This document shows, piece after piece, positions 2,367 through 54,735 of a DNA stretch of 64,000 nucleotides. A model generated the notes under the pieces. It searched no databases, had not been told where the DNA came from, and was given only the letters and a program-made list of their open reading frames with translations. Positions within the stretch are counted from its first letter, which is position 1, and each line of letters begins with the position of its first letter. The translations under genes and the position numbers were made by a program. Source of the stretch: Dehalococcoidia bacterium (GTDB lineage: Bacteria > Chloroflexota > Dehalococcoidia > Lucifugimonadales > Lucifugimonadaceae); assembly GCA_965200145.1 (NCBI GenBank), contig CBDATG010000002.1, positions 891,461-955,460 on the forward strand, given 5' to 3'.

Positions 2367-3070
2367 CAGCCGCCAGCCTGCGCAAAATCCTCGCGCGTCA
2401 ACCTGCCAGCTGCAAGCCGATAGAAACGCGTCCCAACGCGCCGCGCGAAATCGGCATCGTGCGTTGAAATCAAGCAACAACCTCCACGATCTAGTACCGA
2501 CCGCACCAACTCAACTACAGTTCGCAGCGACGAGTCGTCAAGTCCTGTCCCTGGTTCGTCCAGTACCAACACTCGCGGACTGTGCATCACCGACACCGCC
2601 AGTCCTACCCGTTTCCGTAAACCGTGCGATAACACCCTGACACGACTATCCATCAGATGTTCAACGCGCACATTGCTCGCAACGGATTTAACCCGCGCGT
2701 CAACGTCGTCCAGTCGGCACAGTCTTCCGAACAACTCAAGATTCTCTCTAACCGTCAACTCTGAGTAGACCGAAGGCTCGTGTAGCAGCACCCCCGTGTG
2801 AACCCGGACCGCGGCCGCATCCGACACAGTTGAATAACCGCAAACCGACACCGAACCAGATGTCGGCGACATCACCGTTGACACCACCTTCAGTAAGGTG
2901 GTCTTACCAGAACCGTTCGTACCGAACAGAACTGCCGACTCGCCGGCAGCGACTTCCAACGAAACGTCAACTAGGGCCCGTGTTCTACCGAACACTTTGC
3001 TCACGCCGACAGCCGATATCAGCGGCGCGCCATCTCGGGTCGCCACTTCAGTGTCGGTGCCCCACACCAT
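2366..3070 (-). CDS. ccmA: Heme exporter ABC ATPase CcmA
   Basis: Walker A GTNGSGKTTLLK, signature-like LSHGLRKRVGLA, Walker B VLVLDEPGTGLD. It lies first in the ccm gene order. Confidence 0.8.
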   Translation of the reverse strand: MVWGTDTEVATRDGAPLISAVGVSKVFGRTRALVDVSLEVAAGESAVLFGTNGSGKTTLLKVVSTVMSPTSGSVSVCGYSTVSDAAAVRVHTGVLLHEPSVYSELTVRENLELFGRLCRLDDVDARVKSVASNVRVEHLMDSRVRVLSHGLRKRVGLAVSVMHSPRVLVLDEPGTGLDDSSLRTVVELVRSVLDRGGCCLISTHDADFARRVGTRFYRLAAGRLTREDFAQAGG

Positions 3071-52624: not shown

Positions 52625-53797
52625 ATGACCAGACGCTACACAGCCGCCATCATCGGATGCGGAAGCATCGCAAACGCACATATGCAAGGTTACTCAAAGG
52701 TTGACGCAGTCGATGTCATCGCTTGCGTTGACCCTTTGGAGTCAGCGCGCACCATGTACATGCAAGACTGGGATATCCCACAGTCGTTCGCAACTCTGCA
52801 AGAATGCGCAAGCATTGCACAGCCAGACATCGTGAGCGTATGCACATGGCACCTGCTACACGACCCCATCACAGTCGAAGCGGCAGGATATCCATCAATC
52901 AAAGGCATTATCTGCGAAAAACCCATGGCAATAGGCATGGCACGCGCCAACAGGATGGTCGAAGCGTGCGATGCAACCAGCACGAAACTCGTCATCAGCC
53001 ACCAACGCCGATTCACACCAGGATGGGAACGCGCCAAAGAACTCGTAGAAGATGGCGCTATCGGCATCCCATTACGAGTTGACATCCGAGTCAGAGATGG
53101 ACTCGCAAACTGGGCAACTCATTCCATCGACGGCGCAAAGTTCATACTGGGCGACCCGAAACCTAAATGGGTCATGGGCGCAGTTCAACGAACTACAGAC
53201 CGATTCGAACGCAACACACCGATCGAAGATGCGTGCATCGCCCTCGTCATGTTCAACGAACCCCTTCAGTTCTTCATCCAGTCCGATCTATGGGACAACG
53301 ACTGCGATGCCGGCAAGTTCCTGATCCGAGGTACGGAAGGAATGCTACATGTCCGGGAAACCGTGCTGAAACTATTCAACTCGGAAACACAAGGCTGGAA
53401 GGATGTCCCACTCGACATCGAAGAAGGCGACCAACCCATCGGCGGGAACATGAACGCCAAACAGGTCAACGAACTCGTCAGATGGCTTGACGGCGGACCC
53501 GAGCATCGCAACGCAGGACACATCGCCAGAGACACCGTTGAGATCATGATGGCGCTCTACGAATCGGCTCGCCAAAACAAGGTAATCACCTTACCGATGA
53601 CAGAGATGGACTACCCACTCGAGCTGATGATCAACGAAGGCAAGCTACCAGTCGAACAGCCAGGACGATATGACATCCGCGGCTTCCTTGACCGCTCCGA
53701 CATCGACGAAAACAGATACCAACAGCTGAAAGACGACGGGTTAGGACACCACCAGATCATGCGAATCCTCCACGACGAAATGGAGCGAGAGTCCTAA
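52625..53797 (+). CDS. Gfo/Idh/MocA family NAD(P)-dependent oxidoreductase
   Basis: N-terminal Rossmann YTAAIIGCGSIANAHMQGY and an EKPMA motif (ICEKPMAIG). Confidence 0.85.
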   Translation: MTRRYTAAIIGCGSIANAHMQGYSKVDAVDVIACVDPLESARTMYMQDWDIPQSFATLQECASIAQPDIVSVCTWHLLHDPITVEAAGYPSIKGIICEKPMAIGMARANRMVEACDATSTKLVISHQRRFTPGWERAKELVEDGAIGIPLRVDIRVRDGLANWATHSIDGAKFILGDPKPKWVMGAVQRTTDRFERNTPIEDACIALVMFNEPLQFFIQSDLWDNDCDAGKFLIRGTEGMLHVRETVLKLFNSETQGWKDVPLDIEEGDQPIGGNMNAKQVNELVRWLDGGPEHRNAGHIARDTVEIMMALYESARQNKVITLPMTEMDYPLELMINEGKLPVEQPGRYDIRGFLDRSDIDENRYQQLKDDGLGHHQIMRILHDEMERES

Positions 53798-53837
53798 ACG
53801 CGGAGTGGGAGAGGGCAAGCACGGACCGCGTCAACCG

Positions 53838-54036
53838 CAGAATCCAGTAACCCCGCCGGTTCTCGAGTACCAACGGGGTTAGGCCCTAGCCACCATCGCT
53901 AAGGGGGGTTCAACGATCATTGTAACCGATACGCCAATGCCCACCACAACAGAATCCGAAAGCCCCGCCAGAGCTCGAGTCCTGACGGGGCTTGGCCGTA
54001 GCCACAGCGCTACGGGTGGTTCAAGCGTCATTATAA
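53838..54036 (+). repeat. Two tandem copies of an ~88-nt two-hairpin element (candidate structured ncRNA), 112-nt period
   Basis: Copy 1 is 53838-53925 and copy 2 is 53950-54036. Shared blocks are CAGAATCC, CCCCGCC, CTCGAGT, ACGGGG, GGCC.TAGCCAC, CGCTA, GGTTCAA and TCATT.TAA. Hairpins are H1 53849-53880 / 53961-53992 and H2 53884-53905 / 53996-54015, with compensatory substitutions between copies. Confidence 0.6.
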
Positions 54037-54093
54037 AACAAACGGGACAGGACGCTAGTCCGATTCCTGGATTTTGCCAGTTGGAGCAACAAT

Positions 54094-54735
54094 TTGAAGA
54101 GAGTCATGATGTACATCGATGGGCTCAATCTGCGCTATGGGATCCTTGGTCTCGGATTCGAAAAGTACATGTGGCTTGACTTGTCGGCTTTTGGGCATGC
54201 ACTACTTTCGGAAGACCAGCAGCTCGTAGGGGTCAACTACTTCACTGCCAGATTCAAGAGAGACCGGGTGTCAGGTGAGAAGAAACAGGACAGTCAAAGT
54301 GCATTCTTGTCCGCTAATCGACGAAGCAGGAACATCGCGATCCACGAGTCGTTCTTCATTGAACAACGATGCGATTGTGCAAACTGTTCCTCCGCCGGAC
54401 CCGACCATGAAACTTTTGTCTATGTCGAAAAACTAACCGACACTCACATCGCGTCCCGCATGATCGGCGATGCCGTACTAGACCGCTACGACACCGCCAT
54501 ACTCGTCACACGCGACAACGACCTCGCTCCACCTGTACGCGAGGTCCGAAGGCTGTTCCCAGAAAAGCAAGTTATCGTGGCATCTCCCACGACCAATGTC
54601 GGAAAGTTACTTCGGAAAGCCGCCACGCACACCGTCATCATCGAAGAGCGCGCGTTCGCAGATTCCCAGCTACCCGACACCGTAACAGCCCACAGAGGAA
54701 AACTCCTGACGCGCCCAGAAGAGTGGTCACACTAG
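54094..54735 (+). CDS. NYN-domain (LabA/PIN-like) putative ribonuclease with a Cys-rich insert
   Basis: MMYIDGLNL (first acidic residue), EKLTDTHIASRMIGD and VTRDNDLAPPV correspond to the NYN acidic motifs. The insert is EQRCDCANCSS. TTG start with GGAG 7 nt upstream; an alternative ATG lies at 54106. Confidence 0.7.
   Translation: MKRVMMYIDGLNLRYGILGLGFEKYMWLDLSAFGHALLSEDQQLVGVNYFTARFKRDRVSGEKKQDSQSAFLSANRRSRNIAIHESFFIEQRCDCANCSSAGPDHETFVYVEKLTDTHIASRMIGDAVLDRYDTAILVTRDNDLAPPVREVRRLFPEKQVIVASPTTNVGKLLRKAATHTVIIEERAFADSQLPDTVTAHRGKLLTRPEEWSH

Follow-up and report, generated by a model that had tools for sequence, protein, structure and literature searches.

Two-hairpin units beside an HEC-09-type NYN nuclease gene in a Dehalococcoidia bacterium: a likely array of inverted genes for an RNA partner of the nuclease

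What is encoded by the two similar elements that lie head to tail in the 296-nt gap between a GFO/IDH/MocA oxidoreductase gene (hereinafter GFO; 52625-53797, plus strand) and a gene for a NYN-domain nuclease (54094-54735, plus strand) in the genome of a Dehalococcoidia bacterium (Chloroflexota; assembly GCA_965200145.1)? Positions are those of the window, that is, the whole stretch of 64,000 nt analysed here (contig CBDATG010000002.1, positions 891,461 to 955,460). A preliminary description of this DNA reported a tandem pair of elements in the gap, each with two hairpins, H1 and H2. The explanation that appears likely to us is that the array consists of amplified and inverted genes for a ~75-80-nt RNA that is a partner of the HEC-09-type NYN nuclease and is probably antitoxin-like.

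The units and their structured strand

Repeat detection and alignment find the tandem pair exactly where it had been described: a segment of 56 nt (53838-53893) recurs at 53950-54005 with 77% identity and a spacing of 112 nt, and a segment of 32 nt (53894-53925) recurs at 54005-54036 with 78% identity and a spacing of 111 nt. A covariance model built from 19 units of the window and related loci (model R1) places the unit cores, ~86 nt each, at 53832-53918 and 53944-54029 and scores them at ~98 bits, with E ~1e-25. Only these two sites in the window match a pattern derived from the units (0 expected in shuffles), and a search with R1 detects no further full-length copy in the 64-kb window; the remaining R1 matches, in the window and the related loci alike, are short ones to the near-palindromic H1 stem on the opposite strand of the very units. 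Tandem Repeats Finder does not detect the array in the window because the copies are too divergent. The features of the locus, from the nuclease gene towards GFO, are:

54094..54735, plus strand: HEC-09-type NYN nuclease gene, TTG start preceded by GGAG, 213 aa
54064..54077, plus strand: copy of the unit's 3' tail motif (UUCCUGGAUUUUGC) in the NYN leader, an inverted repeat
54030..54035, minus strand: predicted -10 box of unit 2, TATAAT
53944..54029, minus strand: unit 2, the first in the direction of transcription and the closer to the NYN gene (R1, 98.8 bits; also matched at 53947-54025, E 4e-4, by the family model R2 described below)
53996..54015, minus strand: short hairpin H2' of unit 2, 7-bp stem CCGUAGC / GCUACGG
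53960..53993, minus strand: long hairpin H1' of unit 2, loop A-CUCGAG-C, also found as an inverted repeat
53919..53924, minus strand: predicted -10 box of unit 1, TACAAT (ATTGTA on the plus strand)
53832..53918, minus strand: unit 1, the second in the direction of transcription (R1, 98.2 bits, E 8e-25; minus-strand fold -38 kcal/mol, z -2.6)
~53912 down to ~53838, minus strand: small RNA of ~75-80 nt predicted from unit 1
53884..53904, minus strand: short hairpin H2' of unit 1, 7-bp stem CCUUAGC / GCUAGGG
53848..53881, minus strand: long GC-rich hairpin H1' of unit 1, 13-bp stem with the 8-nt loop A-CUCGAG-A, also found as an inverted repeat

The minus-strand fold of each unit consists of a 7-bp hairpin (H2') and, immediately after it, a GC-rich hairpin of 13-15 bp (H1'). 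Across the 19 units, 97.9% of the cells of the alignment are paired and 9 of the 20 pairs show a compensatory change; as a control, sliding the partners by 1-3 columns in the same units leaves 26-49% of the cells paired. The short hairpin is paired in 100% of the cells across all units and includes three covarying pairs. Substitutions therefore keep both stems across related units, in support of the earlier proposal of selection for nucleic acid secondary structure. The two changes singled out in that proposal are real and recur in other units, namely the A:U to G:C change at the base of H1 (minus-strand pair counts GC, 9; AU, 7; GU, 2) and the C:G to G:C flip in H2 (GC, 11; CG, 4; UA, 2; UG, 2). 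A search for further homologous copies yields 28 model matches in the window and nine related loci, and stem preservation holds in the larger alignment of 27 distinct units, where 98.1% of the cells are paired.

This last value applies to the minus strand, whereas the preliminary description had read the hairpins on the plus strand, where only 87.5% of the cells of the same 27 units pair. The difference comes from 66 G·U cells at 12 pair positions of the minus strand that would be A·C on the plus strand; A·C on the minus strand is limited to 3 cells at 2 positions. For example, the H2' stem of unit 1 includes a U·G pair, the plus-strand equivalent of which is a C·A mismatch, and the H1' stem of unit 2 contains U·G and G·U pairs that are mismatched if read on the plus strand. 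RNAalifold likewise favours the minus strand, with a consensus energy of -37.0 kcal/mol vs -23.2 for the plus strand. The structure is assigned to the minus strand.

The CUCGAG sequence in the loop of the long hairpin is identical in every intact unit, is found in this clade only and is self-complementary; as a matter of speculation, it could mediate dimerisation of the RNA by loop-loop kissing or the docking of a nuclease dimer. Two additional interactions were considered and rejected. A purine-riboswitch-like three-way junction on the plus strand, with GGTTCAA paired to CAGAATCC, is drawn by RNAfold for the two window copies and fails in the many units with GGTAT or GGTAC in place of GGTTCA, where no change compensates for the difference. 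Pairing of the 5' CCAC with GUGG in the H2' loop, as a pseudoknot, shows no compensating change between the two unit types.

The units belong to no recognised class of RNA, as already stated in the preliminary description: a search of the region 53700-54200 against Rfam 15 gives no match at the gathering threshold or at E<=10, and a search for tRNA and tmRNA finds nothing at the locus. Coding potential is rejected as well, given that the unit lengths of 86 and 87 nt and the spacings of 109-112 nt are not multiples of three, and that open reading frames of 50 aa and 80 aa spanning the array follow no consistent frame.

The minus strand also carries putative transcription signals. A TAnnnT sequence is present at the same minus-strand offset in 25 of the 27 units, 7-8 nt upstream of a conserved GAACC or AUACC, with positions 1, 2 and 6 fixed and position 3 free, as in sigma-70 -10 boxes; several units have TTGGCA or TTGCCA 18 nt upstream of the box. 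Each unit thus appears to have its own promoter, as judged from the sequence. These boxes account for one of the single-stranded blocks previously described as conserved, TCATT.TAA, which does recur, but as putative promoter sequence, being the reverse complement of the minus-strand -10 box TA(T/C/G/A)AAT; another such block, GGTTCAA, is missing from about half of the related units and so is not conserved. The 3' end of the predicted RNA would lie at the long hairpin and the U-containing tail that follows it.

Joint presence of the array and the nuclease gene

The protein encoded 58 nt beyond the end of the array matches the PADLOC profile HEC-09 over its full length (E 1.8e-56; residues 1-212 vs positions 1-203 of 203 in the profile); this is its only PADLOC match, and NYN (E 6e-9) is the only Pfam family matched. 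Residues D9, E112, K113, D116, D141 and D143, which correspond to a MARF1-type acidic active site, are invariant in 14 homologues from six phyla, and the TTG start is common to 6 of the 7 loci compared. HEC-09 has been described as a candidate defence system of one gene, the product of which has a MARF1-like NYN domain, and was found embedded in Hma systems (bioRxiv 10.1101/2024.01.29.577857). The window gene is not embedded in Hma or any other defence system: its neighbours encode the GFO/IDH/MocA oxidoreductase, AIM24 and an Lhr helicase, and none of the tested NYN neighbours has a PADLOC match. A tblastn search identifies HEC-09-like genes on 145 plasmids, including ColE1-type plasmids of 4-6 kb.

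Nine further loci, all from metagenome assemblies (here and below, loci are designated by L and a number), were identified through NYN protein homologues with 59-99% identity. The gene order in all nine is that of the window, namely GFO, array, NYN, AIM24 (minus strand) and Lhr (minus strand). The intergenic gap ranges from ~300 to ~750 nt because the number of units varies, the lengths tracking 2, 3, 4 or 5 units. Model R1 finds all units at 81-101 bits, except for the decayed unit 4 of L017 at 61 bits, and detects no full-length unit away from NYN in the ~160 kb of the window and related loci. Some of the NYN-adjacent units, for example unit 4 of L017 and one in L041, are visibly decayed. 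Identity among the units of one array is ~63-82% (about 72%), whereas orthologous units in different loci are 90-96% identical, so that the units represent old, maintained paralogues and not a recently arisen or homogenised repeat.

The array and the nuclease gene are both present in 10 of the 10 loci that have NYN. Two more distant relatives, in which GFO is 82% identical, keep the flanking genes and lack both NYN and the array: in L038, GFO lies directly beside AIM24 (an empty site), and in L039, a gene for a Fic-domain protein occupies the site in place of NYN. A search with R1 gives no match in either locus at E<=10. This joint absence indicates that the site is a small variable islet, in which NYN and the array behave as one insert.

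The islet is mosaic. Between the window and L013, part of unit 1 is replaced, which points to exchange of units or half-units between arrays. The replaced part (53900-53950 in the window, 9794-9840 in L013) comprises the short hairpin and the promoter of unit 1 and is 58% identical over 50 nt, compared to 97-100% for the flanking genes; the window version resembles unit 1 of L018, and the L013 version resembles unit 1 of L021 and L015. A comparison of the window with L018 and L021 shows replacement of the NYN leader together with the N-terminal half of NYN, between flanks that are 96-100% identical. In this segment (54000-54450), identity falls to 45-75% over the leader and the first ~110 codons, a pattern that points to allele replacement or diversifying selection in the N-terminal half of the nuclease.

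The two-hairpin motif beside HEC-09-like genes elsewhere

A search of 80 viral-contig loci that encode HEC-09-like proteins (265 kb) with R1 yields 4 matches at E<1, all of them within 140 nt upstream of the NYN gene. With the filters off, R1 also matches plasmid loci of Leptospira, Methylobacterium and Granulicella in the same place. Direct reading of the upstream regions reveals a common layout in most loci, namely a C-rich 5' end (e.g., AACCCACCC), a short hairpin, a GC-rich hairpin and then a U-tract, often after a good TTGACA / TATAAT promoter; the scan calls a promoter in all three relatives tested (L105, L079 and L058) and a terminator in the latter two. The window units share the core of this layout on the minus strand, namely a C-rich single-stranded 5' end, a hairpin of 5-10 bp, a linker of at most 6 nt and a GC-rich hairpin.

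A descriptor scan detects the motif upstream, on the strand of the gene, in 52 of the 75 non-redundant viral-contig and plasmid loci. The corresponding control values are 20/75 for the opposite strand, 10/68 and 6/68 for downstream regions, and 7/75 for shuffled sequences; the opposite-strand value is raised given that two-hairpin motifs read partly alike on both strands. In most of the loci that bear the motif, 16-52 nt separate the end of the second hairpin from the start codon, and the motif usually occurs as a single copy on the nuclease's strand.

A MAFFT alignment of the diverse family members is too poorly in register for pair counts, and subgroup and model-based alignments were therefore used. 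A subgroup of seven sequences from viral loci again shows two hairpins, with 10 of the 19 pairs compensated. The covariance model R2, built from these seven viral-contig sequences only, with none from the Chloroflexota clade, matches many other loci at the same position upstream of the gene. In the matches outside the training set, 17 of the 17 pairs show compensatory change and 94.7% of the cells are paired vs 65.7% in shuffled sequences, in an alignment that is fitted to the model and hence favours structure. R2 also matches unit 2 of the window, the only one of the two window units that passes its threshold, as well as units in L015, L017, L022 and L040; each of these matches is on the minus strand. 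Because the polarity of R2 is fixed by terminators in the source loci, these matches independently confirm the strand assigned to the window units.

The window differs from the family norm in that the units lie opposite to the nuclease strand and no terminator is called; L076 is a second case of inverted orientation. In L040, a decayed plus-sense unit (2379-2464, plus strand) is located directly upstream of NYN, beside five intact minus-strand units. Together with the copy of the tail motif in the leader of the window gene (54064..54077), this relic suggests that the ancestral unit was on the NYN strand. Two tandem two-hairpin units on the nuclease's strand are seen in L110 (~1352-1490) and also in the upstream regions of L091/L100 and L046, so that the RNA gene has been duplicated outside the Chloroflexota clade as well.

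In the 8 plasmid and 12 viral loci searched, the motif has no match in Rfam. Sequence patterns derived from the window units yielded 12 chance matches in viral contigs in a looser form and, in a stricter form, 1 chance match in GTDB species-representative genomes and 4 in JGI metagenomes; these patterns were built on clade-specific sequence, including CTCGAG, and could find this clade only. Tandem Repeats Finder detects nothing useful upstream of the NYN homologues.

Some plasmids show other arrangements. The ColE1-type plasmids NZ_CP033397.1 from E. coli (L030, 1-360) and NZ_CP025579.1 from Klebsiella (L034, 1151-1497), 4-6 kb in size, encode an HEC-09-like NYN protein preceded, in this order, by a perfect palindrome of 26-29 bp, a promoter (TTAGCA-18-TATAAT), two 53-nt direct repeats that are 86% identical over the first 28 nt, and an intrinsic terminator (AAAACCGCC...GGCGGTTTTTTT) that ends ~11 nt before the start codon. 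As read from the sequence, this layout is type III toxin-antitoxin-like, with an RNA that differs from the two-hairpin motif, and R2 has no match in these enterobacterial plasmid repeats. Direct repeats as a general feature upstream of HEC-09 genes were considered and rejected, since they are found only in the enterobacterial ColE1-type plasmids. In the Thermus oshimai plasmid pTHEOS01 (L029, 2410-2465) and in L044, two hairpins precede the NYN homologues, GCCAGAGAUACUAUCUCUGGC and then a 15-bp stem with a palindromic UUUAAUUAAA top, with no C-rich 5' motif and no U-tract; these may be a divergent form of the RNA.

Interpretation and alternatives

Under the explanation favoured here, a unit would comprise a -10 promoter (TAnAAT), a C-rich single-stranded 5' end (GAACC[A/C]CCC), the 7-bp hairpin, the 13-15-bp hairpin and a GGAUUC tail, with the long GC-rich hairpin probably doubling as the 3' end or terminator. 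The usual arrangement elsewhere would be a sigma-70-type promoter, a single-copy RNA, an intrinsic terminator and the nuclease start, all on the nuclease's strand, so that the nuclease could be expressed only by read-through of the terminator and the RNA would be made in large excess. In the Chloroflexota clade, the RNA gene would have been inverted and amplified to 2-5 copies. Inversion would deprive a purely cis-acting leader of its function; the clade nonetheless maintains 2-5 inverted copies that covary and have putative promoters, which suggests that the RNA acts in trans; the inverted, amplified array is, in this respect, a natural experiment. The excess of RNA would be achieved in this clade through gene dosage and the weak TTG start of the nuclease. 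The RNA might bind and restrain the NYN nuclease, or it might serve as a preferred substrate or regulator. The NYN ribonuclease genes that it accompanies are candidates for a phage-defence or addiction module.

A broader proposition, which we put forward tentatively and consider possible rather than probable, is that the HEC-09-type NYN proteins are the protein half of a new, widespread family of RNA-protein toxin-antitoxin or defence systems, type III-like, with a two-hairpin RNA antitoxin. HEC-09 is an orphan candidate defence gene with no assigned mechanism that is present on many plasmids and prophages, including the 4-6-kb plasmids of clinical E. coli and Klebsiella. If the proposition is true, a conserved RNA partner would turn it into a two-component RNA-protein module, and RNA antitoxins would gain a new toxin fold (NYN / PIN-like) together with a new RNA architecture. 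The RNA family itself lies outside Rfam and has covariation support in several phyla.

Several observations weigh against an RNA partner of the nuclease or against parts of the evidence for it. On the plus strand of the window, C exceeds G and A exceeds T, that is, G and T are enriched on the minus strand; throughout the 64,000 nt, the plus-strand GC skew is about -0.07 to -0.24 and the AT skew mostly +0.1 to +0.25, independent of gene orientation. By our estimate, this skew by itself favours G·T over A·C by ~2:1, so that part of the strand asymmetry does not reflect selection; the observed ratio of G·U to A·C is far above this estimate. The covarying units are paralogues and orthologues rather than independent samples. 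In the window, a scan of either strand calls no canonical -35 box, no full promoter and no intrinsic terminator, which leaves the conserved -10 box as the basis of the promoter assignment, and H1' is followed by a weak U-tract (UUUCGGAUUCUG); the scan is known to miss terminators with stems that extend into A-U pairs, as in L034, where the terminator is plain to the eye. Duplex prediction with the NYN start region reveals no convincing base-pairing between the RNA and the NYN mRNA: the predicted duplexes are long and unconstrained and share no site, the leaders differ between loci, and the tail-like motif in the NYN leader is a same-sense rather than a complementary version of the RNA sequence. 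Among near-identical strains, the leader and the N-terminal half of NYN diverge while the adjoining unit stays 94% identical, which argues against tight co-evolution. By the descriptor, ~30% of the HEC-09-like loci are without the motif, and the small plasmids of E. coli and Klebsiella carry a different upstream repeat. Finally, HEC-09 expressed in E. coli gave no protection against the phages tested (bioRxiv 10.1101/2024.01.29.577857).

The same divergence of NYN beside an unchanged unit is what would be expected if the units were genes for trans-acting small RNAs that regulate other mRNAs, with the C-rich 5' end pairing with ribosome-binding sites, and were siblings in the manner of NsiR1, LhrC or Qrr that simply share the variable islet with the nuclease. 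The -10 box in each unit, the C-rich, single-stranded 5' end and the maintained-paralogue pattern (~72% identity within an array vs 90-96% between orthologues) would all fit this view. We nevertheless regard it as unlikely because unrelated phyla and mobile elements also have the motif beside HEC-09-like genes, relatives without NYN are without the array as well, and the ~160 kb of clade sequence holds no copy away from NYN. The array could also be read in the opposite sense, as a cis-acting leader of the NYN mRNA on the plus strand, with tandem aptamers, attenuators or protein-binding sites, or as a classic co-transcribed type III array. It does lie directly upstream of NYN, where plus-strand read-through from the upstream gene is conceivable; most of the other HEC-09-like loci have the motif on the same strand as the gene, and about half of the units can close the plus-strand three-way junction through GAAUCC and GGUUC. 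This reading is very improbable given the 87.5% vs 98.1% pairing with 66 A·C mismatches on the plus strand, the much weaker plus-strand consensus energy, the uncompensated breaks in the junction stem of the GGTAT variants, -10 boxes that are correct only on the minus strand, and the minus-strand matches in this clade of R2, the polarity of which is set by terminators. Furthermore, the stretch between the array and NYN contains no terminator or expression platform and is not conserved among the loci.

An even slimmer chance is assigned to DNA-level repeats without a role for RNA, such as protein-binding or recombination sites built on the CTCGAG palindrome, elements akin to repetitive extragenic palindromes (REP) or miniature inverted-repeat transposable elements (MITE), or a neutral tandem duplication. 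H1 is indeed a near-perfect 34-bp palindrome centred on the unvarying CTCGAG, the arrays hold 2-5 copies, and there is exchange of units among strains. However, compensatory changes in two stems and strand-specific G·U pairs are unexpected for double-stranded binding sites, the units of one array are old, divergent and not homogenised, and the available genome sequence shows no dispersal of the element; the relatives in other phyla keep the fold with an entirely different sequence, along with promoter and terminator signals.

If the units are genes for an RNA partner of the nuclease, the finding is not categorically new and is akin to known RNA-protein toxin-antitoxin or defence modules and to tandem arrays of small-RNA genes. 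The two-hairpin RNA beside HEC-09-type genes is so far undescribed: no report linking NYN or HEC-09 with an RNA partner or antitoxin was found in the literature, with the reservation that absence from the material searched is not proof. The closest likeness is to the type III toxin-antitoxin systems (ToxIN, CptIN, TenpIN), the defining criteria of which are taken from PMC3401426. In both cases, a structured RNA gene lies directly upstream of a gene of an endoribonuclease family in mobile or defence-type DNA, and the RNA may occur in two or more tandem units (one unit, occasionally two, in the relatives of the window array). The relatives share the order of promoter, RNA, intrinsic terminator and nuclease gene, so that the RNA should greatly outnumber the nuclease mRNA. 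The differences are that the protein is NYN (PIN-like) rather than ToxN/AbiQ, CptN or TenpN; that the unit is ~80-110 nt long, compared to 31-62 nt in the known systems, and single-copy in most loci; and that the window units are inverted relative to the nuclease gene, have their own predicted promoters, are ~72% alike and have no terminator before the gene. Here, the comparison is read from the genes, and toxicity, RNA processing and inhibition are predictions. With HEC-09 as defined in PADLOC (Payne et al., bioRxiv 10.1101/2024.01.29.577857), the window protein shares the full-length profile match and the MARF1-type catalytic aspartates; HEC-09 as published is a single protein gene in Hma systems with no RNA component mentioned, whereas the window gene has an RNA neighbour and is part of a small variable islet flanked by housekeeping genes.

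The NsiR1 arrays of heterocystous cyanobacteria (PMC4030482) likewise consist of direct-repeat genes for small RNAs of 60-80 nt, with their own promoters, beside a particular gene, and vary in copy number between genomes. They come from another phylum and have no sequence or structure relationship to the units described here; NsiR1 is a developmental regulator that acts by base-pairing, whereas the partner here is a defence-type nuclease and single-copy relatives of the RNA occur across phyla. The divergent small-RNA loci of the type I systems (tisB/istR-1, zor/orz, dinQ/agrAB) resemble the window in having one or more small-RNA genes just upstream of the toxin gene and pointing away from it, two tandem ones in the case of dinQ/agrAB (PMC4147584; PMC3567139). 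Unlike the nuclease of 213 aa encoded here, the toxins of these systems are small membrane peptides, and their small RNAs are complementary to the long 5' untranslated region of the toxin mRNA, whereas the duplex predictions reveal no conserved complementarity here.

Among the other features of the site, a hairpin (ACGCGG...CCGCGT) is located at 53798-53831, directly 3' of the GFO stop codon, and several related loci retain a recognisable version of the stem. This hairpin could form the 3' end of the mRNA for GFO, or it could halt transcripts that leave the array. Among named sequences, the closest homologues of the flanking GFO gene are in metagenome-assembled genomes of Chloroflexi, Chloroflexota and Dehalococcoidia; an exact look-up of the GFO protein itself gives no record. 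The 'PANK22-1' sample names may point to a sponge-metagenome study. The site between GFO and AIM24 appears to be a hotspot for toxin- or defence-type cargo. In L039 (9170-9290), the Fic/DUF4172 gene is preceded by three GCGGAGAATA repeats and a TATAAT box in an operator-like arrangement.

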